Shown: positions 1 to 58,483, counted from the first letter of the stretch. The stretch: 64,000 bases of DNA from Candidatus Campbellbacteria bacterium (GCA_016699465.1 CP064977.1:409743-473742); one strand, 5' to 3'. The notes: a model not told the origin generated them from the letters alone. A program made the numbers and translations.

Positions 1-2366
1 CAGCCTGCTCGGTAAAGTTCGGACCTAATTTAACTTTGGTCTATGGTAGCAACGGCAGTGGTAAGAGCGGCGTCGGACGACTTTTGTGCAATGCTTGTTT
101 TTCTCGCGGAGAGCGAGAGATATTGCCGAACGTGCGTACTGCCTCCATACCGGGCCCGGAAGCAAAAGCAACATTCGTGATGGATGACGGGGCTGGTAAC
201 CAGAGCGAGATTGGATATACTCTCGGCGACAACAACGATGATCTCAAGTGCTTTTCTGTCTTTGATTCGGAAAGTGTTTTGATACACCTTGACCAGTCCA
301 ACCACGTTAATTTTACACCTGCTCAAATCAAGATTTTCGATAAGGTCGCTGTCACTATTTCAAAGCTTGAAGAAAAACTCACCAACGAGAGAAACGCAAG
401 GAAAAAAGACAATCCTTTTCAGGTGATGTTCCTCGACGACGCAACAACGTCGACGGCCACCTTCTGCAAAGGCATCACTGGTGCAACCAAAGAAGCCGAT
501 TTTCTTAAGCATGCCAATTTCGATGATCAAGTCGACGGATCAAAGATGGATGCGATCCAAAAACAGATCGATGAAAAGAAGAAGCTCGATATCACTAAAA
601 AGAAATCCCAGCTTGCCACCGATCGCCAAAATCTCGGAGCATTCAAAGCCCCACTGCAAAGAGTGACGGACCGGTTTACTGAGACGAAAATGAACGAAGC
701 GAACCAGCTCGTCAAAGATATCCTTGCAAAAAAGAAGATCATCGAGGGTCTCAGCGTCGAGAGTTTTAATGACGGTATTCTGAACACCGTCGGCAGTTCT
801 GAATGGAGAGAGTTGATCGGTGCGGCACGAACTCTGTATGAAGCCGAAAAAGCGGCCAGCGACGATAAAGAGCCAGCACACTGTATGTTGTGCCACCAAA
901 AGCTTACAAAAGATGCCGAGACGCTCTTCCAGAAGTATTGGAAATTTCTTGAGAGCAAAGCCGAGAGCGAGCTTTCCGAATTGACCCGTAAGCAGTCTGC
1001 TCTACTGCAGGATTTCCGATCTGCAAAAACGATGTACCCGAAGTTTCTTGCTACCGATGCCGGTGTAAAAGTTCTTAGTGAGGACGACCCGACTTATTTG
1101 GCAAAGCTAAAGGTTCAATTTACGACGTTGGAAGGTGTGTTGGATGATTGGACTTCGAAAATCGGAAAGCTAAAGGAAGTTAATCGAGACGACGTTCCGG
1201 CCGTTGACCTCGTCAAGATTGATACTCTCGTCACCGCTAAAACGACTGAGGAGTCCAAGCTCGTTGATCCAACCGGCGACATTGCCACGCTTACTGCTCA
1301 ATGGAATGCGCTTAAGCATAAAAAAGATGTCACGGCCGTTAAGGATGCAGGACTGGAATACATCGCATTTCTCGCATGGTCATCACAAGCAAATGGAGTC
1401 AGTTTCTCTGGCATGAAAATGGCGACCACAAAGAAACGAACTGAGTCTTTCCTTGTTGGAGTAGCACAAGATTATAAAGGGGTTTTCAATCAGGAGCTTG
1501 CGAAGCTTGGGTGCGATTTTAATTTGATTATGAATACCAGCGGTGAGCAAGGTACAACGGTAAAGGAGTACCGGCTCGATTTTGCTGAAGACTACAACCC
1601 CAGCCAGATACTCAGCGAGGGAGAGCAGAACGCATGCTCGATCGCAGACTTCTTAACCGAAGTACAGCTCGATAAAAACAATTGCGGTATCGTGTTCGAC
1701 GACCCGGTGACTTCATTGGATCATGAGCGTAAGGACAAGATCGCTCAACGATTGGCAGTTGTTGCCGGAGAGCGTCAGGTAGTAGTTCTTACGCATGACA
1801 TTGTTTTCATGAGCCAGCTTGCCAAGCATGCAGAAAGAAATCAGATCCCAGTAGTTGCACACTGGATGAAGCAGGTTAATGGCATACCGGGGTGCGTTGA
1901 AGACAACACCAGCCCGAAGCTCTCATCGTTAGCAAGTCTGAAGACTGACTCCCAGAATGCTGTAAAGGATTTTGCATCACTCGGTGCAAAAGAACAGGAG
2001 CAAGCTTTGGGTGCAGGGTTCGACTACTTGCGAAGTGCTTGTGAGGCATTGATTGAGGAAGTTCTCTTTGCCGGTACGATCCAACGCTATGACGACCAGA
2101 TCAGGGTTCAGAATCTGGAAGAGGTTATTTTTGACCAAGCTCCTGCTCTCAAGATCGTCGAGCTACACGGTCGACTCTCTGAGGTCTTATTGGCTCACAA
2201 CAGGAGTGATCTACAGAGGGAGAACCAGCCGTCACTCACTGATCTCACTGCAATGCGAAAAGAATTCGACGACCTCGAGAAAGAACTCCGAGAATCACGC
2301 AAAGCGGCCAAAGAAGCGAGAAGTGCTCGCAAAGAGGCAAAAGTAACAGCGAGAGCAGGATGGTAA
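1..2366 (+). CDS. SMC/Rad50-like ABC ATPase with coiled-coil CxxC zinc hook (AAA_13/RloC-like); 5' end runs off the window
   Basis: The frame is open to base 1 and the ORF-track start at 36 is TTG. Walker A GSNGSGKSG near the N-terminus. A long Lys/Glu-rich coiled coil with CMLCH (CxxC) sits mid-protein. ABC signature LSEGEQ, Walker B/D-loop IVFDDPVTSLD and H-loop VLTHD near the C-terminus, followed by a roughly 250-aa C-terminal extension. Confidence 0.6.
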   Translation, partial: ACSVKFGPNLTLVYGSNGSGKSGVGRLLCNACFSRGEREILPNVRTASIPGPEAKATFVMDDGAGNQSEIGYTLGDNNDDLKCFSVFDSESVLIHLDQSNHVNFTPAQIKIFDKVAVTISKLEEKLTNERNARKKDNPFQVMFLDDATTSTATFCKGITGATKEADFLKHANFDDQVDGSKMDAIQKQIDEKKKLDITKKKSQLATDRQNLGAFKAPLQRVTDRFTETKMNEANQLVKDILAKKKIIEGLSVESFNDGILNTVGSSEWRELIGAARTLYEAEKAASDDKEPAHCMLCHQKLTKDAETLFQKYWKFLESKAESELSELTRKQSALLQDFRSAKTMYPKFLATDAGVKVLSEDDPTYLAKLKVQFTTLEGVLDDWTSKIGKLKEVNRDDVPAVDLVKIDTLVTAKTTEESKLVDPTGDIATLTAQWNALKHKKDVTAVKDAGLEYIAFLAWSSQANGVSFSGMKMATTKKRTESFLVGVAQDYKGVFNQELAKLGCDFNLIMNTSGEQGTTVKEYRLDFAEDYNPSQILSEGEQNACSIADFLTEVQLDKNNCGIVFDDPVTSLDHERKDKIAQRLAVVAGERQVVVLTHDIVFMSQLAKHAERNQIPVVAHWMKQVNGIPGCVEDNTSPKLSSLASLKTDSQNAVKDFASLGAKEQEQALGAGFDYLRSACEALIEEVLFAGTIQRYDDQIRVQNLEEVIFDQAPALKIVELHGRLSEVLLAHNRSDLQRENQPSLTDLTAMRKEFDDLEKELRESRKAAKEARSARKEAKVTARAGW

Positions 2367-2375
2367 TAAAAATAT

Positions 2376-3134
2376 ATGTCTGAATACTACACAGCACAAC
2401 GAGTAAAAGGTTTATACGATCCGGCATCGCCGGACCCGTTCAAACTGTCACGATCAAAAATTGATCTCTCTTTGGAGTGCCCTCGGTGTTTCTACTACGA
2501 TCGCAGACTCGGTGTTGGCCGACCACCCGGCTTTCCATTTGCACTTAACTCTGCCGTCGACCACCTACTAAAAGCAGAATTTGATATCCATCGTGTAAAC
2601 GGTTCGAAGCACCCTCTTATAGAAAAGTACGGAATCGATGCACGCCCGATTCCTCATGAGCAATTGGAAAAGTGGCGACATAATTTCACCGGCATTCAGT
2701 ATCTACATCCGGAGACAAACTTTTTAGTATTTGGTGCAATCGATGATCTCTGGCAGAGTCCGGATGGTGATTATATTGTCGTTGACTACAAAGCAACATC
2801 TAAAGCTGAAGACATCACCGAGCTTAATAAAGAATGGCAGAATGGATATAAACGCCAGATGGAGGTGTACCAGTGGTTGCTTCGCAAGAATGGTTTGAAA
2901 GTTTCTAGTACTGGATATTTCGTCTACTGCAACGGCAAGTCTGATCGTGAGGCATTCGATGCAAAGCTCGACTTCGATATCACATTGATTCCTTACACCG
3001 GAGATGATTCATGGGTAGAACAGGCACTTCTGGATGCTCATAAATACTTGAATAATGACTCGCCACCGGCAAGCAAGCCGGAGTGCGATTACTGTTCTTA
3101 CTACGAGACGAGGAAATTAAAAGATAAAAGATAA
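2376..3134 (+). CDS. Cas4-like PD-(D/E)xK nuclease with putative 4-Cys Fe-S cluster
   Basis: PD-(D/E)xK core ...GAIDDLW...DGDYIVVDYKAT. N-terminal CPRC plus C-terminal CDYC cysteines, as in Cas4/AddB/RecB-family nucleases. Starts 10 nt after the ATPase stop. Confidence 0.6.
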   Translation: MSEYYTAQRVKGLYDPASPDPFKLSRSKIDLSLECPRCFYYDRRLGVGRPPGFPFALNSAVDHLLKAEFDIHRVNGSKHPLIEKYGIDARPIPHEQLEKWRHNFTGIQYLHPETNFLVFGAIDDLWQSPDGDYIVVDYKATSKAEDITELNKEWQNGYKRQMEVYQWLLRKNGLKVSSTGYFVYCNGKSDREAFDAKLDFDITLIPYTGDDSWVEQALLDAHKYLNNDSPPASKPECDYCSYYETRKLKDKR

Positions 3135-3147
3135 AATATAAAATTAT

Positions 3148-3300
3148 ATGGATGATAAAGACCCAGAGGAAATAATAGAGATTGCAGAGATTGCTCAAAA
3201 TCAAGGAGTCGACATGGACAGTGCTGAAAAAATTAAAGAGGTTATGGACGAGGAGGGTTTAGACGAAGATGAGGCGGCAGAAATTGCTGAAGAGTTATAA
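3148..3300 (+). CDS. small acidic hypothetical protein (about 50 aa)
   Basis: ATG...TAA ORF below the 60-aa track cutoff, translated by eye (MDDKDPEEIIEIAEIAQ...). Highly acidic with an EIAE-type repeat. Confidence 0.2.
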   Translation: MDDKDPEEIIEIAEIAQNQGVDMDSAEKIKEVMDEEGLDEDEAAEIAEEL

Positions 3301-3306
3301 AACACC

Positions 3307-4176
3307 ATGAAAACAAAAATACTTAATTTTTATAGAAATCACCAACGTGCTTTTTATGCTATCGGCATTTTAGTTCTTTTCTTTGTACTCAGTATTGCGA
3401 GCCAAGCAATATATGATGGACTCAAGGGCGAGACGGAAACCTTTTCGGATTCTGGTGATTCATATTGCAATGTTGTTGGTATAAATTTGCACGGTATGTT
3501 AGCGACCTACGTACCAGCACAAGGCAGTGCAGATGATCCGGAAGAATATCAGGCACAGTATGGCGATGCTGTAGGAAGCGAAGATATTGTTTCCACGATT
3601 CGAGGTGCCGATCAGGACGATACGATCAAGGCCATTATGATGGAAGTTGATTCGAGTGGTGGGTATCCGGTAGCCGGCGAGGAAGTGGCAAATGCGCTAA
3701 AAGAAAGCACGAAACCTACTGTAGTCGTGATCAGGCAAAGTGGTCTATCGGCCGCCTACTGGGCATCAACAGGAGCTACGCAAATCTTTGCTTCAAGGAA
3801 TTCTGATGTTGGAAGTATCGGTGTCACTTCATCCTATCTCGACAACGTTGGAAAGAATCAGAAAGACGGAAACGCTTATGTGCAGTTGAGCTCAGGAAAA
3901 TATAAAGACGCAGGAGATCCAGACAGGCCACTTACAGAAGAAGAAAAGCAGTTATTTCTAAGAGATATTAAAATTACTCATCAGAATTTTATAGAAGCCG
4001 TTGCGACTAACCGAAACATTCCGGTCGATCAGGTTAGGGCTATTGCTGATGGTTCCTCTGTTCTTGGAGAGCAAGCAAAATCTCTAAAATTAGTAGACCA
4101 GATTGGTGGATGGTTTGAAGCAGAAAAATACATAGAACAGCAGATCGGAGAGAAGCCAGAGGTCTGTTGGTACTAA
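3307..4176 (+). CDS. sppA: signal peptide peptidase SppA / S49 family protease
   Basis: N-terminal TM segment. S49/ClpP-like motifs (IKAIMMEVDSSGG, SGLSAAYWAS). Confidence 0.65.
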   Translation: MKTKILNFYRNHQRAFYAIGILVLFFVLSIASQAIYDGLKGETETFSDSGDSYCNVVGINLHGMLATYVPAQGSADDPEEYQAQYGDAVGSEDIVSTIRGADQDDTIKAIMMEVDSSGGYPVAGEEVANALKESTKPTVVVIRQSGLSAAYWASTGATQIFASRNSDVGSIGVTSSYLDNVGKNQKDGNAYVQLSSGKYKDAGDPDRPLTEEEKQLFLRDIKITHQNFIEAVATNRNIPVDQVRAIADGSSVLGEQAKSLKLVDQIGGWFEAEKYIEQQIGEKPEVCWY

Positions 4177-4185
4177 CAAATATTT

Positions 4186-5196
4186 ATGGCAACACTATTT
4201 TTTATTCTACTTTTAATATCACTTGTTTCTCTCGCTGTCGGTCTTGCGAAGCCGTCAGTATTTCTTAGGTTCATAAAAAAAGAGCTGAGCAGAAAACAAA
4301 TCGCTGGTATTTTTGGAAGTTTGGCAATTGTTTCTTTTATAGGAATTGGGTCTTTTGCACCTAGTCCTGCACTGCAAGATTCAGTCGCTACACAAAATAT
4401 TCCTGTAACAGTTTCTCAAAATGATACACAGGAAGTGCAAGATGCATCGGAAACGTCTGATGCTGTCGATAATAAAAAAGAAGTCGTTAGTGTCGACACA
4501 GGCACCGCCAAAGCAAGTGAGGTGCCTGTCCCTACGCAACAGAAGAGCGATCAGAGTCCATTGTATTCTGTAGTTTCTGTTGTTGATGGAGATACTGTTA
4601 AATTGAGCATAGACGGCACGACACAAACCATTAGACTTATCGGATTGGATACACCGGAGACCGTCGATCCAAGAAAACCAGTGCAATGTTTTGGTAAGGA
4701 AGCATCAAATAAGGCCAAAGAACTTCTCACTGGTAAGAGTGTCAGGTTAGAGGTAGATGCTTCGCAGGGTACCCTCGATAAGTATGGCCGCACACTTGGA
4801 TATATATTTCGAGATGATGGACTCTTTTATAACAAGTACATGATCGAGCAAGGTTTTGCACACGAGTATACCTATAACATCCCCTATAAATATCAATCGG
4901 AATTTAAGGCGGCTGAGAAGTCAGCACGAGAAAATCAGAGAGGTCTATGGTCACCTGAAACTTGTAATGGTGACACCGCGTCTGTTTCTGGATCATCGGA
5001 AACCCAGACTGATCCAGCTACAACATCCTCTGGAGGAAAATTTTATACATCATCTTATTACTCATCAAAATATTACTATCCAGAGCCATGTGATGGATGG
5101 AAAAGTTTGAGCAAAACTTACCTTAAATCTTTTGATTCATTGGAGGCTCTACTTGAAGCATATCCGTCACGGACAATGAGTCCTCAATGTGAATAA
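4186..5196 (+). CDS. membrane-anchored thermonuclease (SNase-like) family protein
   Basis: N-terminal TM segment. SNase-fold motifs GDTVKL, IRLIGLDTPET, DKYGRTLGYIF. Ser/Tyr-rich C-terminal tail. Confidence 0.65.
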   Translation: MATLFFILLLISLVSLAVGLAKPSVFLRFIKKELSRKQIAGIFGSLAIVSFIGIGSFAPSPALQDSVATQNIPVTVSQNDTQEVQDASETSDAVDNKKEVVSVDTGTAKASEVPVPTQQKSDQSPLYSVVSVVDGDTVKLSIDGTTQTIRLIGLDTPETVDPRKPVQCFGKEASNKAKELLTGKSVRLEVDASQGTLDKYGRTLGYIFRDDGLFYNKYMIEQGFAHEYTYNIPYKYQSEFKAAEKSARENQRGLWSPETCNGDTASVSGSSETQTDPATTSSGGKFYTSSYYSSKYYYPEPCDGWKSLSKTYLKSFDSLEALLEAYPSRTMSPQCE

Positions 5197-5334
5197 GCAT
5201 TTTGAAACGTGAATTTATGGTCAAATGAGCCAATCTGTGAATATCGAATAAAAGCTCGCCACAGGGGCAAACAAATGGCAAAAAAGGGGCTACAAACGGC
5301 TCCTTTTTGCTTTTCAAGGTACTTATTGGATTGG

Positions 5335-5601
5335 TCAGCCAAAAATATCGATAAACCCTTGAAGTATTGGCAGGTTTAGTAACAGGATCACTGCGACAAC
5401 ACCGGGACCTTTTTTCTTTATCTCTTGGGTTGCAGGGAGTATTATGATCTCAATTTTTCTTTTGATGATCACTTTCAGTGTCTTACTGCAATGTGGACAC
5501 CGCATGGAGAATCGACCCTCGGAGTTGAAAACGGCATCTTTGAAGATGATGTTGGTGCAGTGAGGACAGTTTCCTAGATTGGTTGGTTCCTCTGCGGCCA
5601 T
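5335..5601 (-). CDS. hypothetical zinc-ribbon protein
   Basis: CPHC...CPHC pair. Hydrophobic C-terminus. Confidence 0.3.
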   Translation of the reverse strand: MAAEEPTNLGNCPHCTNIIFKDAVFNSEGRFSMRCPHCSKTLKVIIKRKIEIIILPATQEIKKKGPGVVAVILLLNLPILQGFIDIFG

Positions 5602-5805
5602 AGTTTTGTTCCGGAGGTTCTGATGCTATCCCGATAAGCTATTGGTTCTTTACAGGCAACGGAGAGAACCTCGGCTTAGAAAGAGTGAATTTACATTCAC
5701 GGTTTCCTTATCGGGTTCGGCCGCAGAAATCCTCGATCATGATTATTTTGGTTAGTAAATGATCAATCGTCCGGGTTCGACTACATCCGAACGATCAATC
5801 TAATT

Positions 5806-6348
5806 TCAAGGTTCCTCCGTTGCCGTTCTTGCACGCCTCTTGTCGCCATTCATCGACATCTTGGCGACTAGCACGTCTCTCATCTCCGCTAAGTTATCCC
5901 CAGTTTTTTGATCACGTGCGTAATTCTTTTTAATAAATTCTTTTTCTTTATTCTTGTTAGTAGTTCCTGCTGACTGATCTGACCGGTCTGTATGACCGAT
6001 GTGCAAGTCTGACTGACCGATCTTGTTTGAGTTCGGTCTGTATGACCGGTCTAGTTTCAACAGGTAGTACACATTGTGGTAGCGTCGCCGGCTCTTTCGG
6101 ATGATCTCAAGCTTGATGAGTTGCCGGATACCTCTTTGCACGCTCGAAATGCTTGCACCGATCTTGTCGGCAATGGTCTGGTGGGACGGAAAACAAAAAC
6201 CCTCCTGGTTAGCGTGCTCTGCCAGGCAGTTATAAATAGCGATGCCGATTGGACCTATTGTGCTTCCGTATTCATCGAGAAGCACCTTGCTGATCCAATA
6301 CCAGTCACCTTTGCGAAGATCCCTGATTGTTATTTTTTCATCCGGCAT
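5806..6348 (-). CDS. helix-turn-helix protein, replication-initiator/DnaD-like (element-borne)
   Basis: Winged-HTH-like segment FCFPSHQTIADKIGASISSVQRGIRQL. Start taken at the internal Met (MPDEK). Palindromic repeats lie inside its 3' half. Confidence 0.4.
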   Translation of the reverse strand: MPDEKITIRDLRKGDWYWISKVLLDEYGSTIGPIGIAIYNCLAEHANQEGFCFPSHQTIADKIGASISSVQRGIRQLIKLEIIRKSRRRYHNVYYLLKLDRSYRPNSNKIGQSDLHIGHTDRSDQSAGTTNKNKEKEFIKKNYARDQKTGDNLAEMRDVLVAKMSMNGDKRRARTATEEP

Positions 6349-6552
6349 ACACGAGAAATAAAGGCGTGGCGAGGGTCGACCAAAACCCAGACCGCACCTT
6401 ATCGATCCTCTCAATGAGGTGGCAGACCATTGAGGGGAGAGTAAGAGGCGGTCTACCATTCTCTAGATTTGGGTAGAGCCCGATCGATGTTATCCATCGC
6501 TCGGCAGAAATCTCTTCGTATAATTGGATTTTCAAGTTCCCGGATGGTGAAG

Positions 6553-6831
6553 TTACTCAAGAGGCTCTCCCGTCGCCAAAGAAGTTCCTTCCTCGTTGGC
6601 GGCTTCCGAGTCATCCGTGTCCATATCCTCCGGATAAGTCTCTTGATCAGGATTTTCGTTGTCATGTTTTTTGATGTGATCCATGTGATCCAAAAGCATG
6701 AACGCCATACGCTTAAAGCCAGCGTGGACTTTCCAAACTTCTTGTCGGGACGGCTCTCGGCCGAGTACATCGGCGAGTGCGTTGCGAGTGAGCTCAACAA
6801 GAGCTTCCTCATCTTTATCTGGTTTGGACAT
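6553..6831 (-). CDS. hypothetical acidic protein
   Basis: ORF with an acidic C-terminus. No recognisable motif. Confidence 0.25.
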   Translation of the reverse strand: MSKPDKDEEALVELTRNALADVLGREPSRQEVWKVHAGFKRMAFMLLDHMDHIKKHDNENPDQETYPEDMDTDDSEAANEEGTSLATGEPLE

Positions 6832-6884
6832 GCGGTGGTTTGGTTCATAGAAGTGACCTCACACTTTTACTGACCCCACCTTGC

Positions 6885-7091
6885 CTAAGGCAAGAAAACT
6901 TCCTCTACTCTGACCCCGAGAGCCAAAGCGATCCGCTGGGCTGTTTCGAGATTCGGCCGCTTCCGGCCGGTCTCGTACCTGCTGATCGCAGTGTTGTGCT
7001 TAAAACCAAGAATTCGGGCTAGTTGATATTGCGTTAGCCCTTTCTTGATTCGAAGGTCACGGAGTTTTATATTCACTGGTGATTTGTTCAT
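6885..7091 (-). CDS. XRE-family HTH transcriptional regulator (Cro-like)
   Basis: LTQYQLARILGFKHNTAISRYETGRKRP HTH. Divergent from a CI-like repressor gene. Confidence 0.7.
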   Translation of the reverse strand: MNKSPVNIKLRDLRIKKGLTQYQLARILGFKHNTAISRYETGRKRPNLETAQRIALALGVRVEEVFLP

Positions 7092-7247
7092 AGGTTTAAC
7101 TTTTAGACCTCTATAGTCATATTAAGCAATTTTGCTTACGAGGTCAATATATTGGGGTGTGGATAAGCAAAGTTGCTTAATCTTTACTAATTTGCTATCA
7201 TGTAAGCAATAAGGTCGGCATTAATCGATTAAGCAAAATCAACAAAT
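7092..7247. promoter_or_regulatory. divergent promoter/operator region of a Cro/CI-like switch
   Basis: Two copies of the palindrome TAAGCAA-N2-TTGCTTA plus extra TAAGCAA half-sites, between divergently transcribed HTH genes. Confidence 0.45.
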
Positions 7248-7964
7248 ATGTCATTTGGTTCATATCTAAAACAACAAAGAGAATCGAATAACTGGAGTAT
7301 CAAAGAGATCGCAGAACGGCTCGGCTTTTCCTCAAGTTACGTGAGCCAGTTGGAGAATGGGACTCGTATGCCGTCTAATAAACAGTTGGCGGTTTTTGCT
7401 AAGGCTTACCAGCTTCCCGAAGAGGAAGTGAAGAAGCATTGGGCAGAGGGCAAGATGCAAAAGGTCAGCATGCAGACTGACTACAAATTCAATCTCAAGG
7501 ATGTCGGCGAGAAGCGCGTACATGAAGCCGCCAACAAACTCGAAGAAGGATTGGAGGAATTGAAAAAGAGTTTTTCCGGTGATGGTCATTTTAAATTGCC
7601 GGTGCTTGTAGCGATTCCTATTGATGATCTCGACGGTCATCTAAGTCGAACGAGCGACTTTGTTTTATTGCCAAAAGATAATGTGGTTTCAGGTCACCGA
7701 GTGTTTGGACTCCGTGTATCCGATCTCACACTCCCCGATGCGGCCATTCTTTCTGGAGACTTCATCATTCTCGATGCCGACATTGCCCCAAAGAATGGCG
7801 ACATCGTGATCATGAGCACACCGGATGGTCTGGTGATGACTTATTACCAAGAGCGGGGCGATCACCTTGAGCTTCGGCCAGAGAAGGAAGGCTTCAAAAA
7901 AACCTACCATCTCAAGGAGAGTAAGATGATAGGCCGATTGGTTTACCACATCAAAAAATATTAA
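7248..7964 (+). CDS. CI/LexA-like repressor (N-terminal XRE HTH plus C-terminal S24-peptidase-like domain)
   Basis: N-terminal HTH (IKEIAERLGFSSSYVSQLENG). C-terminal LexA/S24-like segment (GLRVSDLTLPDAAILSGDFIIL...NGDIVIM). Confidence 0.6.
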   Translation: MSFGSYLKQQRESNNWSIKEIAERLGFSSSYVSQLENGTRMPSNKQLAVFAKAYQLPEEEVKKHWAEGKMQKVSMQTDYKFNLKDVGEKRVHEAANKLEEGLEELKKSFSGDGHFKLPVLVAIPIDDLDGHLSRTSDFVLLPKDNVVSGHRVFGLRVSDLTLPDAAILSGDFIILDADIAPKNGDIVIMSTPDGLVMTYYQERGDHLELRPEKEGFKKTYHLKESKMIGRLVYHIKKY

Positions 7965-8060
7965 CGAACAGGGCTCTCCGCAAGGTGAGCCCTCAAGCTA
8001 TTTTAGGAGGGTGGTAATAAAGAAATTATAAAAAATTAGTAAAGAATTTATAAACTAACC

Positions 8061-9644
8061 ATGAACTACTTAATTTACGGCCGTGTCTCTACCTCTCGTC
8101 AGGCCGAACGAGAATTGAGTATTCCGGCTCAAGTGAAAGCGTGTCAGAAGTACGGCATGGATCACGGTTGGAATCTTGCACCTGATGGCATCTACGAGGA
8201 AAAGGGTGAATCAGCTCGAACGGTTGAGCGTCCTCAGCTTCAGAAAATGCTTCATCGGGCAAAGACTGATAACAAGGTCGATGCAATCTTAATGCACAAA
8301 CTTGATCGTATGTGTCGCAACGTTGCGGACTACGCCGCAATAAAGATGATGCTCAAAAAGCACGACGTCCGACTGATCTCGGTGGTCGAGCAATTTGATG
8401 AGTCTTTCTCCGGAGAGCTGGTCGAGAACATCATGTCATCGATCGCTCAATGGACGTCCCAGAACATCAGCTGGGAGGTCAGGAAGGGTCTTAAAGAGGC
8501 CGTAGAGCGTGGCAGGTTCCCCGGATACGCACCAATCGGCTATATGAACGATCGGAAGACCAAATCCCTGATCGTGGATACTGTTCGAGCACCATATGTG
8601 AAGCTGGGGTTTGAGCTTTATGCGACAGGCAAATTTTCTTACTACACACTCGGTGACGAATTGGCAAAACGAGGTCTCAAGAGCAAGGCTGGCAAACGTG
8701 TCTCAAAAAAAGGCGTTGAGCGGATGCTTCAAAATTCGATCTACTACGGTCTTATAAAAACACGATCAGCTACCAATCAGGCAAACTTCCCGTCACTCAT
8801 CACTAAGAAACTGTTTGATGACGTACAGGAGATCATCGCCCAGCACAATCACTATGCCGATCGGTCTCGCAAACACACCTTTCCGCTTACTGGCTTTATG
8901 CGATGTGGTTACTGCGGTTCTATGTTGAGTGGTCAGGTAAAAAAGGGTCATCTGTACTATAACTGCTCTCACCGGCGTGATGCCAAATGTCCGGAAAGAA
9001 AGTACACACGATCAGAGCTTATCGAAGAGCAGGTCGTGGCGTATCTCTCACGAGTCGAGTTGCCACCTAAGTTCAAGACGGTCTTGGATGCGTACTTCCA
9101 GCACTTCGCAAAAGAGCGTATGGATCAGGAGGAAAACGAACGCAAAAGCATTAAGCATGACCTGATCAGAGTGCAACAGCAGATCCGTAATATTGTCGTG
9201 GATCGCTCAAAACGCATCATTGACGCAGAGGTTTTTATAAAGATTCAGGACGAGCTTCTTAAGGAGAAAGAGATGTATCAAGATCGCTTGGCCGAGCTCG
9301 AGGGTAAGTCAGACAAATTCGTGCAGAAATTCAATGAGCTTCTCGACTTCACGGATCACGCCGATGAAGTGTACCAAAAGAGTGGCACTAGTCAGAAGCG
9401 AACGGTACTAAAGCTTTGCATTGAGGGGTTCACAGTCAGAAATCAAAAACTGACGCCGATATGGACGCCAGTCTTTGATGTTCTTATGGACTTACAATTG
9501 TCCAAGTTCGATCCCCCAAAAGTCGGCGGCAAGGGTTCTAAAACCGCCTCAAAAACCCTTGCCGTACCTAAGGTTCTAACTTGGACATCTGGCGGAGAGG
9601 GAGGGATTCGAACCCTCGGACCAGTTTCCCGGTCAGCATCTTAG
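8061..9644 (+). CDS. large serine recombinase (integrase)
   Basis: N-terminal resolvase domain (YGRVSTSRQ, catalytic Ser), recombinase domain and a Cys-rich zinc ribbon (CGYCGS...CSHRRDAKCP). The 3' end overlaps the tRNA-Ser 3' end. Confidence 0.8.
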   Translation: MNYLIYGRVSTSRQAERELSIPAQVKACQKYGMDHGWNLAPDGIYEEKGESARTVERPQLQKMLHRAKTDNKVDAILMHKLDRMCRNVADYAAIKMMLKKHDVRLISVVEQFDESFSGELVENIMSSIAQWTSQNISWEVRKGLKEAVERGRFPGYAPIGYMNDRKTKSLIVDTVRAPYVKLGFELYATGKFSYYTLGDELAKRGLKSKAGKRVSKKGVERMLQNSIYYGLIKTRSATNQANFPSLITKKLFDDVQEIIAQHNHYADRSRKHTFPLTGFMRCGYCGSMLSGQVKKGHLYYNCSHRRDAKCPERKYTRSELIEEQVVAYLSRVELPPKFKTVLDAYFQHFAKERMDQEENERKSIKHDLIRVQQQIRNIVVDRSKRIIDAEVFIKIQDELLKEKEMYQDRLAELEGKSDKFVQKFNELLDFTDHADEVYQKSGTSQKRTVLKLCIEGFTVRNQKLTPIWTPVFDVLMDLQLSKFDPPKVGGKGSKTASKTLAVPKVLTWTSGGEGGIRTLGPVSRSAS

Positions 9645-9679
9645 CAGGATGCTGCATTCGACCGCTCTGCCACCTCTCC
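9591..9679 (-). tRNA. tRNA-Ser(GCU), class II with long variable arm, CCA encoded
   Basis: Folded by hand: acceptor GGAGAGG/CCTCTCC, 3-bp D-stem, anticodon arm GCATC-CTGCTAA-GATGC (anticodon GCT), long variable arm, T-arm GAGGG-TTCGAAT-CCCTC, G73, CCA. Confidence 0.8.
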
Positions 9680-9787: not shown

Positions 9788-10588
9788 GTGAGTATAAAAA
9801 AGTTTCGAAAAACAGTATGGAGTTATTACCGCCAACACGGCCGTATATTGCCATGGAGAAAAACACGCGACCCCTACAAAATCCTTATGTCGGAAATCAT
9901 GCTCCAACAAACACAAGTAGACCGTGTTGTTTCAAAGTACACAGCGTTTACGAAACAATTCCCAAATTTCAAAACACTCGCAAATGCAAGAACGTCGGAT
10001 GTTATACAAGCATGGCAAGGTCTCGGATATAATCGCCGAGCACTCAATCTCCAGCGCTGCACGCAAGAAGTCGTACAAAAATACAAGGGCAAACTTCCAT
10101 CATCGTATACTGAGCTAGTTTCCCTTCCTGGAATTGGACCATACACCGCAGGTGCGATCATGGCATTTGCATACAACAAACCTATTGCATGTATTGAGAC
10201 AAATATTCGAGCAGTGTACATCCATCATTTTTTCTCTCCTACAAAAAAAGTATCTGACAAAGAATTACTACTGTTGATTGAACAAACACTTGATACACAA
10301 AATCCACGCGAATGGTACTGGGCGCTCATGGATTATGGTTCCTATCTCAAAAAAACACTTCCCAACCCTGCTCGACGCAGTACACACCACACAAAACAAA
10401 AAATGTTTAAAGGTTCTAATCGACAGTTGCGCGGAAATATACTGAAACTAGTATCTCAAAAAAGTATCTCTGAAAAAAAACTTTTCGCTGAAATACAAAG
10501 AAAGCCAATTGAAATACGGGGCGCTCTTACAGCACTTACAAAAGAAGGATTTATACAAAAGAAAGGGGCAAACATTTCTCTTATATAA
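9788..10588 (+). CDS. HhH-GPD base-excision glycosylase, MutY/Nth-like
   Basis: LPWRKTRDPYKILMSEIMLQQTQV and HhH GIGPYTAGAI motifs. Confidence 0.7.
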   Translation: MSIKKFRKTVWSYYRQHGRILPWRKTRDPYKILMSEIMLQQTQVDRVVSKYTAFTKQFPNFKTLANARTSDVIQAWQGLGYNRRALNLQRCTQEVVQKYKGKLPSSYTELVSLPGIGPYTAGAIMAFAYNKPIACIETNIRAVYIHHFFSPTKKVSDKELLLLIEQTLDTQNPREWYWALMDYGSYLKKTLPNPARRSTHHTKQKMFKGSNRQLRGNILKLVSQKSISEKKLFAEIQRKPIEIRGALTALTKEGFIQKKGANISLI

Positions 10589-10632
10589 GAAAAGGCCGTG
10601 TTCGGGGTCGAAACCCCGAACACGGCCTGCTG

Positions 10633-11478
10633 TCAGAACGTCCAGATTGTCGAGACGGTCGGCGTCGCCGGGATGGCGAATCGCCCACTTCGGCTGTCGC
10701 TCTCCGACCGGAGGAGCGATAGCTTCAGCTTCATCAGCCGCCCCTGATACGAAACACTCGGCTTGGCGTAGATTGAATATCGTTCCTTGTCGGAAGCGAT
10801 CACGCCACCCGACATCCCGAGGACCCACGGCCCCTTCTCGTACACGTACGACATCTCGCCGTACGCGTACAGACGATCGCCGTCGCCGTAGGCCGTATGG
10901 TAAACGCCGACATACTGCCACCCGAGCTCGGTTGACCATCCACCACGAAGTGTTCGACTGAACGAACCCAGCGGGCCGATGAAGGTCGAGGACTTTCCGC
11001 CTCGGTACGGCGGAGCGTAAAAAATCTCTACGCCCGCCTTCCCCGACCACTTACCCAGAGAAAACTTCCTCTGAATGATGGGATCGATGAAGTGGGCCAT
11101 GACGCCGGCATCGTGCGTCCCGAGGGCTTTGACACCCAAGAGGAACACGTCCCAGTTGTCGTCAGCGTACGTGAGCGACAACCCCGCGATGGGATCGTCG
11201 CTCGCCACGGAGCCGAAGGACTTGAACGCGGATCGCGAAGACCAACTGGTCTCCAGCGTCCACAGATCGTCCTTCTCGAGCACCGTGACTGGAGCGATGT
11301 TCACCCCGGTCACCAGGTTCGTGGTCATGGCGAGCTGGTCGCCGTTGACCTCCTGACCATGCGCCGCGATGGCACAGGCCAGAGGCCAGCCCACCAACAG
11401 CGCGAGGACGATCCACAGTAGAGGCTGTGCGGTCTTCTTGTTGACTCGAGCAACGAGGGCCGTGTTCAGACTCTTCAC
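10633..11478 (-). CDS. outer-membrane beta-barrel-like protein (high-GC island)
   Basis: Signal peptide, alternating beta-strand pattern, C-terminal ...WTF aromatic terminus. About 62% GC versus about 43% in the flanking genes. Confidence 0.4.
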   Translation of the reverse strand: MKSLNTALVARVNKKTAQPLLWIVLALLVGWPLACAIAAHGQEVNGDQLAMTTNLVTGVNIAPVTVLEKDDLWTLETSWSSRSAFKSFGSVASDDPIAGLSLTYADDNWDVFLLGVKALGTHDAGVMAHFIDPIIQRKFSLGKWSGKAGVEIFYAPPYRGGKSSTFIGPLGSFSRTLRGGWSTELGWQYVGVYHTAYGDGDRLYAYGEMSYVYEKGPWVLGMSGGVIASDKERYSIYAKPSVSYQGRLMKLKLSLLRSESDSRSGRFAIPATPTVSTIWTF

Positions 11479-12328: not shown

Positions 12329-15300
12329 TTAGTGTATATTGAAAATATAGGATTCCTCCCCAGTGTCTCCAATGGAAACAGAGAGATCTGTAAGATTTGT
12401 TGTCTTCATGAGTGCTTCTTTGTATTCCTCAATAAGTTTTTTTCCGTCTTCGTTTGTAACAACAGAAAGTGCCGGAGCATCTGACGCAGTCAATCCTACT
12501 GTTTTTCTAAAATCTTGAATAGCACGCATCAAATCACGGACACTTCCTTCTTTCTGCAATTCAGGCGTCACCACGGTATCAAGCTCAACATCCCAACCTG
12601 CGTCCTCTTTGAAAAAGACTTCTTTTACATTTACTTCATCGGAAATCAACGCAACAAGTTCTGGAAACTTTTGTAGCGTAAGATTTCCACCTCGAAGTGT
12701 CAGCGATGCGAGTGGCTGACGCACTTTTACTCCTGCTGTCATACGTGCCTCAAGAGCCCGCGACGCAACATCTCGTGTTTTCTGCATGTTTTTTACAATC
12801 TCTTTTTCCTTCTTTGATTCATGACCAAATATTCCAGTATCTGCTTTTGGCCACGTCTCCAAGTGCACGCTTTCTAACTCACCGCCAATGGAAGTATATA
12901 TTTCTTCAGCAAAGAACGGTGCAAATGGTGCCAGTATCTGAGCAAGTGTTTTCAGTACATGGTGTGTCGTTGCAAGTGCCTGTTCCCTATCCTCAACATT
13001 TTCTGACTTAAATCTCTCTCGTGAACGGCGAATGTACCACGTAGAAAGATCCTGAACAAAATCTCGAATTGCACGCGTAGGTTCAAAAACATGGTACGTC
13101 TCAAGACCTTGCGTTACATCAGCAACAAGCTCATTGAGTCGCGTCAAAATCCACACATCAAGAACACGTTTGGAGACTGGAGACTGGAGACTGGAGACTG
13201 GAGCTTCATCCTTGTACATCTCATAGAACTTCACCACATTGCGAGTAATCGTAAATACTTTTTTTGATACCTCATCAACTGTTTTTTCATCAAAGTTTTT
13301 TGAATCACCTGGTTGATTCACGGAATACATCCAAAAACGAATGACATCAACTCCGTATTTTGCTATTGCCTCCCATGGATTCACCACGTTACCAATCGAC
13401 TTACTCATCTTTTTACCTTTTGCATCCAAAATGTGTCCAAGGCAAATAACATTTTCAAATGCGCGCCCTTTCCCCATGAGAGCACCCACAGCATGCAGTG
13501 TGTAAAACCACCCGCGCGTCTGATCAATTGCTTCAGAAATGTACTGCGCAGGATATCCTTGCCCATCAATCCATTCTTTATTTTCAAAAGGATAGTGATC
13601 TTGTGCAAATGGCATAGCGCCTGAATCAAACCATACGTCCATCACTTCAGGAGTACGCTTCATGCGTGCAGTACATTTTGGACACGTCACCTCTACCTCA
13701 TCGATGTATGGCTTGTGTAAATCAATATCAAAGGTGTCATTGTGTGGAAGTGGTACAAAGCCAAATTCAAGCACGTGTGCAAGTTCAAGTGGTGTTGTTG
13801 CCATAATACGCTCAGCACGCGCATCATCTGCACCTTCCAAAATTGCTAGAACAGTAGAAAAACCGATTCCGTGAGTGACAACAATAATGTGTTCATCCTC
13901 ATGCCGACTATCAATGTCATACAAAAACTCTGCAAAACGTCGTCGAGCATCTGCATAACTTTCCCCATTAGGAAGCGCATCAGTATATCTATATCCATTC
14001 GCTTTTCTAAACGCAAACACTTCTTTGTGTTGTTTGCCATTAAAATCACCATACCCGAGCTCTCGCAATCGCTCATCAACAACAATGGCATCCGGAGATA
14101 TACCGAGCTCTTGTGCAAGAATATTTGCCGTCTCACGAGTTCGCACAAATGGCGACGTGTATAGTGTCGTCACTTTTTCTTTCTGAATTTTTTTACTTGC
14201 GTGCACAACCTGCTCTTTTCCTTTCTCCGTTATGTGATCTGGTCCATTTGGATCTGCACTCGCAGTGTCTAACACATTATTCTGCGCTTCTCCGTGCCGA
14301 ACAAACGTAAATGTATTTCCACGGGACTTTGTAATCTTTTTGAGATGTTCAATAGATGATACGACTTCCGTGTGATGACAGTGCTCACAATTCCAGACAG
14401 GTAATGGAGTTCCCCAGTACCTATCACGAGAAAACGCCCAATCTTTTACCTCACGAAGCCATTCACCAAAACGTCCTTCTTTAATATGTTCTGGTACCCA
14501 ATGAATTTTTTATTTTCCTTAACTAATTCATCACGCAACTCCGACATGCGAATGTACCACGAATCCCGCGCATAGTAGATAAGTGCCGTATGACAGCGCC
14601 AACAGTGTGGGTATGTGTGTTCAAATTTTTCTTTCTTAAATAAAAGATTTCGTCCTGCCAAATCTTTAATAACTTCAACGGCAGTTGATTCATCACGCAC
14701 AAAGAGTCCTTCATAGAGCCCTGTGCCTTGTACAAAATGCCCCGTCTCATCTACAAGATGCCACTTCGGCAATCCAACCTTGTTTCCCAATTCAAAATCT
14801 TCCTGTCCGTACATCACCGCAGTGTGCACAATACCTGTACCGTCTGTTGTCGTCACAAAATCCGCAGAGTACACCTTGTACGCATTCTGCATTTTTTCTT
14901 TTTCAGGGCCAGAAATAAGCGTGTTCAAAAATGGAAAAAGTGGTTCGTACGTAAGACCAATAAGTGCTTCACCTAAACATTCTTCAACAACTTCATACCC
15001 TTCACCCAACACAGAAAGTCGATCCCTTCCAAGCCACAAAAATTCACCACCATGAGAAACTTTTACATACGAAATTTTTTCTCCAATAGCAAGACCAACG
15101 TTTCCAAGAAGTGTCCACGGCGTTGTCGTCCATGCAAGTAAGTATGTATTTTCTTCTCCTACAAGTGCAAACTTCACATACACCGAAATATCTTTTACAT
15201 CTTCATATCCCTGCGCGAGCTCATGGCTTGAAAGTGCTGTCCCACAACGCGGACACCACGGGAGCACTTTGTAATCCTTATAGAGAAGTTCTCGCTTGTG

Positions 15301-27292: not shown

Positions 27293-28129
27293 TCATTCCG
27301 ATATCTCTGGTGACTGATACTTAACACATAGCAATAAATTATGAAAAAGCATTGCAATAGCAATTGGGCCAACTCCTCCTGGAACAGGGGTCATCACTGA
27401 AGCTTTTTGTGCACATTCTGGATCTGCATCCCCCACCACCTTGCCCCCCGCCTCGCTCGTGCCCGCGTCGAGAATAACCACGCCATCTTTAATCATGTTG
27501 GGCTTGAGCACGTGTGGCGCGCCGGCACCCAAAACAAGGATATCTGCGTTGTGTGTGTACGCTTCGAGCGTGTCACCGCGTTCGACCACGGCGACACGCG
27601 CACCCCAATGAGACAGCCATGTTGCCATGGGACCACCCACAAGCAACCCGCGTCCAACAACAACCGCGTTTTTCTCCGCAACGTCAACTCCTGCATGCTC
27701 CAAGATTTCTTTGCACGCGCCAACCACAGGTGGAAGGAGTGACATATCGCCGTTTTCAAAACGGGTTCGTGCCTCCGCGCCAAGTCCATCGACATCGTGC
27801 GACGCCGGAATCGTGTCTTGTATCTTTTTGAAATCAATGTGCGCCGGCAAGGGCAACTGTACGATGATGCCGTTGCTCACAGCAACAGCCTCGCGCACGT
27901 GTGCAACCAACGCATCGGTTGTCGTTGATTCAGGAAGCTCGAGCACCCGCACATCAACACCAACCGATTCACCGGTTCGTTTTTTGATCTTGATGAACTG
28001 TTGCGTTGCGGCATCAGACGAGAGCACAAACACGCTCAAAAGCGGCCTCTCAACAAGCGTTGAGACCTTGTGTGCAAGCGATTCGGTTATCTCACGCGCA
28101 ATAGCGCGTCCATCAATGAGCATATGCAT
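27293..28129 (-). CDS. folD: bifunctional methylenetetrahydrofolate dehydrogenase/cyclohydrolase
   Basis: FolD catalytic and NADP-binding motifs (GGVGPIAIAML). Confidence 0.85.
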   Translation of the reverse strand: MHMLIDGRAIAREITESLAHKVSTLVERPLLSVFVLSSDAATQQFIKIKKRTGESVGVDVRVLELPESTTTDALVAHVREAVAVSNGIIVQLPLPAHIDFKKIQDTIPASHDVDGLGAEARTRFENGDMSLLPPVVGACKEILEHAGVDVAEKNAVVVGRGLLVGGPMATWLSHWGARVAVVERGDTLEAYTHNADILVLGAGAPHVLKPNMIKDGVVILDAGTSEAGGKVVGDADPECAQKASVMTPVPGGVGPIAIAMLFHNLLLCVKYQSPEISE

Positions 28130-28150
28130 ATTCTACCATTCATCACACAT

Positions 28151-28212
28151 ATAAAAATGAAACCCCCGTGCAGTGAGCACGGGGGGGCAAAGCTAGACAT
28201 CAGGCAGCGCGA
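28151..28212 (-). terminator. terminator module copy 1 (downstream of gene A)
   Basis: cccccgtgctcactgcacggggg hairpin plus tttcattttt on the minus strand. Near-identical to the module at 29044-29103. Confidence 0.55.
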
Positions 28213-28886: not shown

Positions 28887-28912
28887 GACGACTCTCCTTT
28901 CATGCCCGCAGG

Positions 28913-29036: not shown

Positions 29037-29043
29037 GATTTTT

Positions 29044-29741: not shown

Positions 29742-29784
29742 ATTTTCTCCTTGCCCAGTATCAGTGGGCACAAGGGCCGCGAAT

Positions 29785-56659: not shown

Positions 56660-58483
56660 TCAGTTCGTCGAACCGAGCACAATCTCCACACGACGGTTCT
56701 GTGCCTTGCCTTCGGACGTCGTGTTGGACGCCTTGGGCTCGGTCTCGCCGAACGCACGGATGCGAATTCGGCCGTTCGGGAAGTTGGCAGGAGCTTCGTG
56801 CTCCAACCACTCCTTGACGGCGAATGCACGCTGCTCGGAGAGCAGCATGTTACTCTCGTCGTCTCCATCGGAGTCGGTGTGTCCGTGAACCTCCACGGCT
56901 AGCGCTTCGGCGATGACGAGATCCTTCAGCAACTGCTGAAGCTTCGCGAGTGCATCTGGCGTGAACTGGGCCGAGCCACTCACGAAGTTGATCTGCCATG
57001 CTTTGCGCGACACCTCGTCACGAATGCGGGTGGATGACGTGAATGTCGGCGCATCGGCCGTCGTTGTGACACCCACCCGATCCCGAAGCTCTTCGATGAA
57101 CCGGGTGTTGATCACCTGATCCACAGGAGTGTACATCGGGAAATCCTTCGGGTACTGCTGCGAAAGCAGCGAACCGAAGTTCTCATACACCAGCTTGGCG
57201 GTCTTCGCCGAACCAGGGGTCAGGCCGAACAAGCGCAGGTTGTCGGCGAGGTTGTTGGCGTAACTTCCGCCAAGTTCGACCTCGATTCCCTTCTTGTCGC
57301 GCTCGCGCACGACGGTGTAGTACTTCTTCCAGTAGGCCGCCGTCTCCTCGCGGTAGACGTCGGCGCTCACCTTTGCAGCGAAGTCCAGAGCGGCGGGACT
57401 GAACTTGATGTTGTCTCCACCTTCCAGCGCCGCACGCAGGAAGTTCACGACGAGCTCAGGGTGAGCCGTGTCGAACTTCTTGATGCCGATGATTGCGTTG
57501 GGCATCTGGCTGCTGTACTCCTTGGTAGAAGCCAGCGAAACCAAGCCACCCTTCTTCTGTGCAACCATCACATCGCCCGGCGTCCACGTTGCAACACCGT
57601 TGACGCAGACGTGCTTAGCGTCACCCGTACGCCGACCGTTCTTCACGACCGGACGGTCTTCGCAGTAGCCGGTGATGTACTTCTCCGCGGCATCCATGTA
57701 ACTGGCGGCCCGGACCCAGTTGACTGCGTCCGGATCGTACGTCGTTTCGTCGCGATTGTTGATGACGCCGTTGTCCCCCTGGAACTTCAAGCAGACGTTC
57801 CAGTCACCGTCAGTGATGACACCAGCGAAAAGCGCGCCACGCATGGCTTGCGGATTGTGCTTCCATTCCGGCAGACCCATGCACTTGTCCTCGCCGCGGC
57901 TGTAGCCGAGCGAGCCCACATATTCCACCGTGTACTCCGAGCCGAGCCGGCCGAGCGTATTGTTGACCGTCGTAACGAACGCGGGAGCACCGTCCCACAT
58001 GATGGACACATGAGTTGCGCCACCGCTACATTCCGAGCCGCCCGACGAAGACATCTCCGTCGCACAGGTGACGAGGTCGGCTTGCATCTGGCTCACGTCG
58101 TCCTGGCGGTACCAGTAGACGTTGCTTCCGTACTTCGCCATGAGCGAACCGTCCATGGGGACGTTCCCGCCCATCGCGTACCAAAGACCCATCTGCGAAC
58201 TCCACGCCCATCCGGCGATCCGCATCTGCGGGCCGGACATACGGGCGGGGGTGTTGCTCGGCGCCGACGAGGGGACGAATCCCTGCGTCGCCGACGAACT
58301 GGCGGTGCTCAGCGTCGGAAGATCGACCTGCTTGGGCAGGATCGACTTCATGATATTGCTGCCGGGGATGAGCCCGAAGTAATCGAGCCCCAGGTAGCCG
58401 ACGAAGAACGCGGCGATGATGATGCCGAGCTTGGGAAGCGGGCCCAGACGGGCCCAGAAACTGCGCTGATCGTTTCCGTTCAT
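56660..58483 (-). CDS. membrane-anchored periplasmic substrate-binding-like domain fused to a C-terminal OmpA-like peptidoglycan-binding domain
   Basis: N-terminal TM segment. Central SBP-like region. C-terminal OmpA_C motif (...AFGETEP...NRRVEIVL). Confidence 0.5.
   Translation of the reverse strand: MNGNDQRSFWARLGPLPKLGIIIAAFFVGYLGLDYFGLIPGSNIMKSILPKQVDLPTLSTASSSATQGFVPSSAPSNTPARMSGPQMRIAGWAWSSQMGLWYAMGGNVPMDGSLMAKYGSNVYWYRQDDVSQMQADLVTCATEMSSSGGSECSGGATHVSIMWDGAPAFVTTVNNTLGRLGSEYTVEYVGSLGYSRGEDKCMGLPEWKHNPQAMRGALFAGVITDGDWNVCLKFQGDNGVINNRDETTYDPDAVNWVRAASYMDAAEKYITGYCEDRPVVKNGRRTGDAKHVCVNGVATWTPGDVMVAQKKGGLVSLASTKEYSSQMPNAIIGIKKFDTAHPELVVNFLRAALEGGDNIKFSPAALDFAAKVSADVYREETAAYWKKYYTVVRERDKKGIEVELGGSYANNLADNLRLFGLTPGSAKTAKLVYENFGSLLSQQYPKDFPMYTPVDQVINTRFIEELRDRVGVTTTADAPTFTSSTRIRDEVSRKAWQINFVSGSAQFTPDALAKLQQLLKDLVIAEALAVEVHGHTDSDGDDESNMLLSEQRAFAVKEWLEHEAPANFPNGRIRIRAFGETEPKASNTTSEGKAQNRRVEIVLGSTN

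Follow-up and report, generated by a model that had tools for sequence, protein, structure and literature searches.

A serine integrase gene joined to the 3' end of tRNA-Ser at the probable right arm of a temperate prophage in a Patescibacteria chromosome

The integrase gene and its tRNA junction

The DNA analysed here is a stretch of 64,000 nucleotides (nt) from Candidatus Campbellbacteria bacterium (GCA_016699465.1, CP064977.1:409743-473742), called the window, whose positions are counted from its first letter. The segment from position 1 to about 9595 ends in a gene for a large serine integrase that runs into the 3' end of a tRNA-Ser gene. This segment is very probably the right arm of a temperate tailed prophage inserted in the chromosome of a member of the Patescibacteria (candidate phyla radiation, CPR), a reading built on sequence comparison. 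It would carry, from left to right, defence and cargo genes, early and replication genes, an immunity switch and the integrase gene. The phage family to which it is assigned is previously undescribed and widespread in the tiny-celled Patescibacteria.

The large serine recombinase open reading frame (ORF; 8061..9644, + strand) codes for 527 amino acids (aa) in its prophage form and was assigned with Pfam and PHROG. Its domains match Resolvase (1.6e-30), Recombinase (4.9e-12) and Zn_ribbon_recom (3.2e-11), the whole protein matches a PHROG 'integrase' family (E 8e-99), and the best match of the amino terminal catalytic domain among solved structures is the TP901-1 integrase. This succession of resolvase, recombinase and zinc-ribbon domains is that of the serine-integrase phages (Listeria A118/LI, Bxb1, phiC31, TP901-1, SPbeta), with the particularity that identity to integrases of deposited phages does not exceed 29%. 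The tRNA-Ser(GCU) gene (9590..9679, - strand; ARAGORN and Rfam) is an intact host gene that forms the B' arm of the attachment site attR, its CCA (9590-9592) coming from the phage arm. The Rfam scan of the element found no RNA family besides this tRNA. The final 55 nt of the integrase ORF are antisense to the 3' half of tRNA-Ser(GCU), in agreement with the overlap of about 54 nt given in a preliminary description of the locus. The integrase is phage-encoded up to ~9593-9595, and its final ~16 codons are antisense to the host tRNA. The ORF of the prophage runs into the tRNA antisense strand because attP lies inside the reading frame.

The same arrangement recurs among related loci (n = 69), which were retrieved by scanning one genome per species and all come from metagenome-assembled genomes. 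Their integrases are 67-100% identical to that of the window over the best aligned segment, and up to 99.8% over the 509-aa core. The host names are nearly all those of Patescibacteria/CPR (Yonath-, Magasanik-, Kaiser-, Vogel-, Zambryski-, Azam-, Nomura-, Veblen- and Sungbacteria, Paceibacterota, Parcubacteria), a few loci bearing automatic 'Saccharibacteria' or 'Gammaproteobacteria' labels. At 62 junctions, the window included, the integrase ORF enters a tRNA gene on the opposite strand, which is tRNA-Ser-GCU (21 junctions), tRNA-Ser-GGA (15), tRNA-Ser-CGA (15), tRNA-Ser-UGA (7) or tRNA-Asp-GUC (4). CCA is encoded in 59 of these 62 targeted tRNAs, compared to 31 of the 84 other tRNAs of the same loci. 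The recurrent junctions bear out the earlier proposal that a mobile element is integrated here, bounded on the right by the 3' end of tRNA-Ser and with a serine integrase gene placed at that boundary.

A non-mobile recombinase gene resident beside tRNA-Ser would also account for one neighbourhood being found in many genomes. Its probability is close to nil. The targets are five different tRNA genes in unrelated host surroundings, the right flank of the window being common to none of the related loci. Near-identical integrases occur in differently named lineages, phage genes and matching attL sites are linked to them, and remnants or scars are found, as is the solo P arm (the phage arm of attR) of locus L065. 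In addition, about 25 of the 69 contigs end within the integrase gene; contig breaks inside a gene are typical of mobile or population-variable sequence. The varied tRNA targets, the contig breaks and the lack of a shared right flank rule out a vertically inherited resident integrase. Note that locus L002 was considered as the window's own contig and was rejected, its tRNA being a different one. A search for exact copies of the nuclease, the integrase, the glycosylase, the CI-like protein and two right-flank ORFs gave two short Logan contigs only.

One type of integrase and immunity thereby links at least 60 genomes under many candidate-phylum names into a host-virus map, which suggests recent exchange across lineages. 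To our knowledge Patescibacteria (CPR) have few known phages, hardly any of them tractable. The literature holds isolated reports of CPR prophages, among which we found none of this phage family.

Element DNA is conserved up to ...GGTTCTAACTTGGACATC-TGGCGG (GGACATC-TGGCGG), and from the next base on the tRNA sequence is host-specific. The sequence past TGGCGG is complementary to the 5' acceptor strand of its own tRNA, even between elements whose integrases are 96-99.8% identical. Since the tRNA varies by host and matches its own 5' strand, the tRNA body is host DNA and the element has no spare 3' half. This does not fit the 'classic geometry' with a duplicated tRNA 3' segment that the preliminary description had assumed. 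The 25-mer ggcggagagggagggattcgaaccc, whose direct repeat it had proposed to search for, has no second copy in the window or in contig L001, which reaches 5.1 kb further left, because the tRNA body is host DNA. The direct-repeat test, together with the refutation attached to it, was ill-posed because the tRNA segment belongs to the host and the enzyme is a serine integrase; for serine-integrase elements at tRNAs a search for tRNA direct repeats is the wrong test.

The island that such a test presupposes would carry its own tRNA 3' half, with which the gene is restored on insertion, and leave the displaced half as a long direct repeat at its far end. [quoted passage not shown] The explanation is nonetheless extremely improbable: the enzyme is a serine and not a tyrosine recombinase, the tRNA body co-varies with the host 5' strand as described above, the 25-mer repeat is missing, and the relatives' attL sites share cTGGCGG or less with attR and hold no tRNA segment. 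The tyrosine-integrase elements of tRNA genes (P4-type islands; phage mv4 at the tRNA-Ser 3' end, bioRxiv 10.1101/2023.11.06.565760) are similar in targeting a tRNA 3' end, in their adjoining integrase gene and in leaving the tRNA functional. They differ in the enzyme superfamily and in the duplicated tRNA stretch that forms a direct repeat, where only ~6-7 nt are shared here. The word 'tRNA' has 0 occurrences in a survey of large serine recombinases (PMC10083194), and no report of a serine integrase targeting tRNA 3' ends was found in the literature.

The attR core (9572..9595, + strand) is composed of the P arm GGTTCTAACTT (9572-9582), GGACATC (9583-9589), TGG (9590-9592) and CGG (9593-9595), the triplet to which the crossover is assigned. 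Four attL sites are available for comparison, those of an IMG/VR prophage (L080) and of L029, L068 and L081. Their P' arm repeats the P arm in inverted and imperfect form, and the two vary together by lineage (GGTTCTAACTT/GGACATC versus GGTTCAAAGTT/GGAAATC), and at most 7 nt (cTGGCGG or less) are common to attL and attR. The three bases preceding CGG are TGG, CTG, CTA or TTG at attL and always TGG at attR. In 98 aligned junction proteins the upstream sequence is random and conservation sets in at the third base of the codon before GG (entropy 3.9, then 1.5, then 0.15 bits). The variable attL bases and the onset of conservation place the crossover within CGG, at window 9593-9595, which corresponds to tRNA G73-C72-C71. 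The symmetry of the inner GATGTCC motifs favours GG (9594-9595) as the most likely 2-bp crossover.

Relative to GG, P' has the start of its outer motif (TTAGAACC) at +17 and the tRNA arm has its own (TTCGAACC, T-arm) at +12, a shift of 5 bp. This matches the rule for serine integrases, by which attB has its outer zinc-ribbon motif closer to the centre, by ~5 bp, than attP (PMC3783163). Short att sites with imperfect inverted arms, the 2-bp crossover and the lack of long direct repeats are likewise features common to the serine-integrase phages listed above. Unlike them, the target is here the 3' acceptor end of tRNA-Ser (four isoacceptors) or tRNA-Asp, conservation in attB is confined to the tRNA half-site, and the ORF that contains attP would be fused to the integrase gene. 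In the non-tRNA arm of attB no motif is conserved, and site recognition seems to rest on the acceptor/T-arm half-site, which would account for the use of four Ser isoacceptors and tRNA-Asp. Almost all bacteria share a conserved acceptor/T-arm end of tRNA-Ser. The family appears to move among very different Patescibacteria by way of this near-universal end of tRNA-Ser or tRNA-Asp. An integrase needing a single conserved half-site would be an attractive candidate for a genetic tool, including in uncultured and intractable CPR bacteria.

In the proposed sequence of events, the serine integrase would have acted on attP and on the very 3' tip of the tRNA-Ser(GCU) gene of the host, the tRNA staying intact after integration with TGG, the encoded CCA, supplied by the phage arm. 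The attL site is expected ~25-30 kb beyond the left edge of the window. It should consist of a host arm, CGG and the P' arm (T/A)GGCGAT(G/T)TCC(C/G)GAA(G/C)TT(A/T)GAACC, with a holin-like gene and an endolysin gene adjoining. The predicted attP is GGTTCTAACTTGGACATCTGGCGGTGGCGATGTCC, and the predicted empty attB is the left host flank followed by CGGAGAGGGAGGGATTCGAACC. The attP junction is absent from IMG/VR and occurs in 5 JGI contigs, none with an integrase upstream.

Contigs L083-L087 and L090/L091 (junction of L090 at ~10001-10070) have intact P-core-P' sites with a small tail ORF and no integrase upstream. On its P side L090 has 10 kb of genes of housekeeping type (Adk, RecG, SOD, Fpg), a context that resembles a host chromosome. 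These integrase-less attP-type sites may be hitchhiker elements or remnants. Fragments of truncated integrases in L041 (~11040-11100) and L069 (~10000-10180) lead into another P'-like arm (TGGCGG-TGTTTTTTGRACGAAGTTCGAAC), which has the same spacing but no tail ORF, the frame ending ...SGGVF before a stop codon; protein P0039 ends likewise. The L069 junction lies between DnaK/DnaJ/tRNA-Glu and TatC. The search of IMG/VR for this P' arm gave no match, and the two junctions are an atypical variant.

Other junctions bear traces of earlier events. In L065 (8793-8905) a second tRNA-Ser(GGA) is followed by the solo P arm (GATTTCCAAGTTTGAACC) without an integrase gene, which is the scar of a lost prophage. 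In L042 (~850-1010) and L064 (~10500-10647) a conserved insert of ~130 nt separates the end of the integrase from the intact tRNA. The insert is bordered by a 21-23-nt duplication of the tRNA-Ser 3' end and may be what another kind of tRNA-targeting element left behind as a scar. In L048 (~660-812) the integrase end is followed by the 55-nt 3' half of one tRNA-Ser and then by a different, intact tRNA-Ser(GGA) without encoded CCA.

A full-length relative and the extent of the element

The IMG/VR contig 3300025154_002045 has a prophage of 37.9 kb from attL to attR whose integrase is 94.7% identical to that of the window. The window and L001 together are colinear with its right 14.7 kb (84-90% nt identity). 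Leftwards from the integrase end, the prophage codes for methylases, unknown proteins and an AAA ATPase as in the window and L001, followed by RadC, a Fic protein, a D12 methylase and a ParB-like protein. The next genes code for TerL, a portal-like protein, a SU10-type major capsid protein (SU10_MCP, 2e-40), a beta-helix tail spike, BppU_N and a SU10 adaptor. A LysM protein, a 938-aa protein, an Amidase_2 endolysin and a holin-like gene complete the series. The attL site (aaattgtcc-TGGCGG-TGGCGATGTCCCGAAGTTAGAACC; L080 18128..18095, - strand) comes right after the holin-like gene. The relative is related to phages with SU10-like (HK97-fold) capsids through its SU10_MCP and SU10_adaptor matches and, weakly, through the Pfam SU10_portal match of its portal-like protein. 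It differs from them in that its capsid protein is at most 30% identical to that of any deposited phage, its host belongs to the Patescibacteria and the phage is temperate.

The structural genes of this prophage begin left of the sequence available for the window's element. The preliminary description had remarked that no phage structural genes are visible and that the left end lies outside the window, which holds for the part of the element contained in the window. Its suggestion of a satellite or of an element resembling an integrative and conjugative element, rather than a prophage, is not supported for the family, the syntenic relative being a complete-length prophage with structural genes and a closely similar integrase. 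Relaxase, coupling protein and type IV secretion genes were not found among the proteins scanned in the window and in eight other contigs (L001, L005, L019, L029, L071, L072, L074 and L080), which speaks against conjugation.

That the window's element is satellite-like or defective, with integrase, switch and replication genes and no virion genes, is unlikely, though it has some observations in its favour. Structural genes are absent from window 1-9600 and from the 5.1 kb further left, L029 (9.6 kb) and L068 (6.2 kb) lack a whole morphogenesis block, and integrase-less copies of the att site exist; L029, L068 and the integrase-less att contigs could behave as hitchhikers. Against this stand the colinearity of the window and L001 with the right 14.7 kb of the 37.9-kb prophage and the organization of L029, where the direct fusion of the holin-like gene and the ParB/methylase region looks more like the deletion of a full prophage than a dedicated satellite design. 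L029 and L068, the latter with a truncated integrase, are deletion derivatives.

Several points weigh against assigning the window to the right arm of a temperate tailed prophage. The elements L029 and L068, just mentioned, show that members of the family can be devoid of the morphogenesis block. The window's own left arm was not seen, as L001 ends in a RadC-like gene 5.1 kb further left. The excised form and the empty site of the window's host were not recovered in sequence searches, and the analysis identified no recombination directionality factor. Sequence and comparison show the domain content, the geometry of the junction, the layout of the att sites and the prophage nature of the close relative. 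Recombination activity, regulation and the completeness of the window's own prophage are inferred, the counterpart of the relative's structural genes lying outside the available sequence.

The reading frame across attP

When the integrase frame is continued across the crossover into P', a peptide of 47-50 aa is read at all four attL sites. It is conserved as GGGD(V/F).K(L/F)EP...DKI(I/V)R.LR..YKENPA.FDVPAFA.KVY, including its stop codon, and lacks a start codon of its own at attL. Nucleotide differences are distributed as in coding sequence (377 at the third codon position versus 228 and 220 at the others), and an indel corresponds to exactly three codons. The integrase-side arm of the window is identical to that of the 3300025154_002045 prophage. 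Conservative excision of the latter must recreate an integrase ORF of ~557 aa because the integrase frame continues into the P' peptide. No fusion of integrase and tail was found among the 120 integrase-like matches listed as closest to the window integrase. Close integrases of the family that have an intact carboxyl terminus end in a tRNA-antisense tail, a few odd endings aside (e.g., P0039). A profile search with the attL-encoded peptide retrieved 105 small junction proteins, all of 31-90 aa and none fused to an integrase.

In L088 (1-360) and L089 (1-250) the peptide is coded by a stand-alone gene of 56-58 aa, which starts at an ATG of its own immediately ahead of the P arm and is preceded by AT-rich sequence. 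The protein begins MPQVLTWTSGG and continues as GDVPKLEP..., the P-core-P' site being intact. Both are contigs of phage late genes with a holin-like gene and an endolysin gene, L088 coding also for LysM, SU10 adaptor and BppU_N proteins. In the window's lineage a Val codon occupies the position of the ATG of the L088/L089 gene and follows a variable linker of low complexity. These sequences are most economically read as a small gene that contains attP and, in the lineage of the window, became fused to the integrase gene. The AlphaFold model of the small protein has a disordered amino terminus and one confident helix (predicted local distance difference test score, pLDDT, of 75).

We put forward, tentatively and with more doubt than confidence, that attP is situated in a small gene fused in frame to the integrase 3' end. 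The free form of the phage would then code for an integrase of ~557 aa with a 47-50-aa helical carboxyl terminal module (GGGDVPKLEP...DKIVRDLRRIYKENPA.FDVPAFA.KVY). Integration would move this module to the far end of the prophage and put an arbitrary tRNA-antisense tail in its place, so that the recombinase changes with integration. This built-in change, or the loss of a partner peptide, could set a bias in the direction of recombination or the timing of expression. We know of no description of an integration-dependent change of the recombinase by a split ORF for serine integrases. If true, the ORF split across attP would be a new coupling of the integration state to the composition of the recombinase in the serine family.

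Two known systems are comparable. Broussard and colleagues reportedly described in 2013 the integration-dependent immunity of mycobacteriophages BPs and Brujita, in which attP is said to lie in the repressor gene, a tyrosine integrase acting and the repressor being truncated. The likeness is an attP within a gene whose product differs between the integrated and the free states; here that product would be the small helical peptide or the integrase tail. The 'suicidal' integrases of SSV-type archaeal viruses (PMC7253208) also have the att site inside the integrase frame, which is split on integration and restored on excision. They differ from the present case in that the body of a tyrosine recombinase is split, while here all recognised domains are kept and only the 47-50-aa carboxyl terminal add-on behind the variable linker would be detached.

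Immunity switch, early genes, cargo and other features of the window

The immunity switch lies left of the integrase gene. It is composed of the gene for a CI-like repressor (7248..7964, + strand), with an amino terminal helix-turn-helix (HTH; Pfam HTH_31/HTH_3) and a carboxyl terminal Peptidase_S24 domain, and the divergent gene for a Cro-like XRE repressor (6885..7091, - strand; Pfam HTH_3, 5e-17). Between them are two full operators TAAGCAA-N2-TTGCTTA (7123-7138, TAAGCAATTTTGCTTA, and 7164-7179, TAAGCAAAGTTGCTTA), 41 bp apart from start to start, plus half-sites. The perfect palindromes have no other match in the 64 kb, where 0.29 would be expected with up to 2 mismatches allowed. The operator pair with its 41-bp spacing is conserved in 34 related loci although the elements are only 72-90% identical in DNA, for which reason the window's family looks like one immunity group. 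The divergent Cro-like/CI-like switch and its operators had already been recognised in the preliminary description and are confirmed by this conservation. Its view of the repressor as LexA/CI-like stands for the HTH and S24 domains and fails for the Ser/Lys dyad of self-cleaving LexA/CI proteins, which is missing. In comparison with the LexA structures of Escherichia coli and Thermotoga, the catalytic Ser position is Thr and the Lys position Thr or Tyr (S119/T; K156/T or Y), and the CI-like protein of L029 has the same residues at the dyad positions. Self-cleavage is unlikely because the S24 domain lacks the dyad, and induction would probably not proceed by RecA-stimulated self-cleavage. The organization recalls that of lambda CI/Cro in its divergent HTH repressor genes, its repeated palindromic operators and a repressor combining HTH and S24 folds. 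It differs in having two full operators plus half-sites and an S24 domain without the dyad.

The CI-like repressor would keep lysogeny by binding the two operators between the cI-like and cro-like genes. A promoter-like site of the cro-like gene (7147..7119, - strand) overlaps operator 1, which is weak evidence, as the counts of the promoter and terminator scans are at chance level and give hints only. A leftward early operon would comprise the cro-like gene and the genes for an acidic protein of 92 aa, for a zinc-ribbon protein and for a replication initiator, the last with iterons inside it. The acidic protein (6553..6831, - strand) has no Pfam or PHROG match and is conserved in L029, L071 and L005. 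The replication-initiator-like HTH_36/DnaD-like protein (5806..6459, - strand) matches Pfam HTH_36 and 13 PHROG families of replication initiation. Iteron-like repeats GTCTG(T/A)(A/C)TGACCG occur at 5986, 6007 and 6036, inside the 3' part of the initiator gene, and these three repeats are a candidate origin. The last gene of the operon codes for a small zinc-ribbon-like protein (5335..5601, - strand) with two CxxC pairs, conserved in relatives and without Pfam match above threshold. The left edge of the lysogeny/early module is a conserved non-coding segment (5251..5313; 86-92% identity in many loci, with flanks at ~72%) in which the terminator scan placed a terminator-like hairpin (5254-5272, - strand).

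A variable slot extends between RadC and this conserved segment. In the window its genes code for the carboxyl terminal 776 of the 883 aa of an AAA_13/SMC-like ATPase (1..2366, + strand; Pfam AAA_13; full gene in L001 4864-7515), a Cas4-like PD-(D/E)XK nuclease (2376..3134, + strand; Pfam PDDEXK_1 and Cas_Cas4, PADLOC Cas4), an SppA-like S49 peptidase (3307..4176, + strand; Pfam Peptidase_S49, 3e-33) and a thermonuclease (4186..5196, + strand; Pfam SNase, 3e-25; PADLOC SNc+LTD model). The Pfam matches of the last two proteins and of the HTH_36 initiator uphold the earlier annotation of SppA, thermonuclease and an HTH replication protein. The thermonuclease appears to have an amino terminal hydrophobic segment. 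The full-length ATPase matches the PADLOC candidate defence family PDC-S06 (E 4e-129). Its upstream neighbours in L001 are genes for two N6/N4 methyltransferases, one of them PglX-like, and for two proteins without family match. The Cas4-like nuclease is common to 9 related elements (72-84% nt identity), and the position of the SppA-like peptidase is taken by other genes in relatives. Slot contents of the relatives are restriction-modification systems, AAA ATPases, a P-type ATPase, PAP2, DsrE or a tyrosine recombinase. The tyrosine recombinase gene (L071 6158-6979) is found in the cargo slot of a serine-integrase prophage.

The remainder of the window has a few features of its own. A 151-nt Rfam match to the whole tRNA model (37113-37263, - strand), with an insertion of ~80 nt, is located beside tRNA-Leu and tRNA-Cys and was not called by ARAGORN; it may be an intron-containing tRNA. 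The 23S and 5S rRNA genes are present (36651-41234) and 16S is absent from the 64-kb window, so that the rRNA operon appears unlinked. Two islands of 53-61% G+C (27300-29900 and 55700-60600) stand out from a genome of 41-47% G+C; their ORFs have no Pfam match except for a 607-aa OmpA-family protein (56660..58483) and FolD (27293..28129). At 12329-14275 (- strand) a His_Phos_1 domain is in frame with the carboxyl terminal half of an isoleucyl-tRNA synthetase, the ORF being either a case of inserted domain or a split/fused gene.

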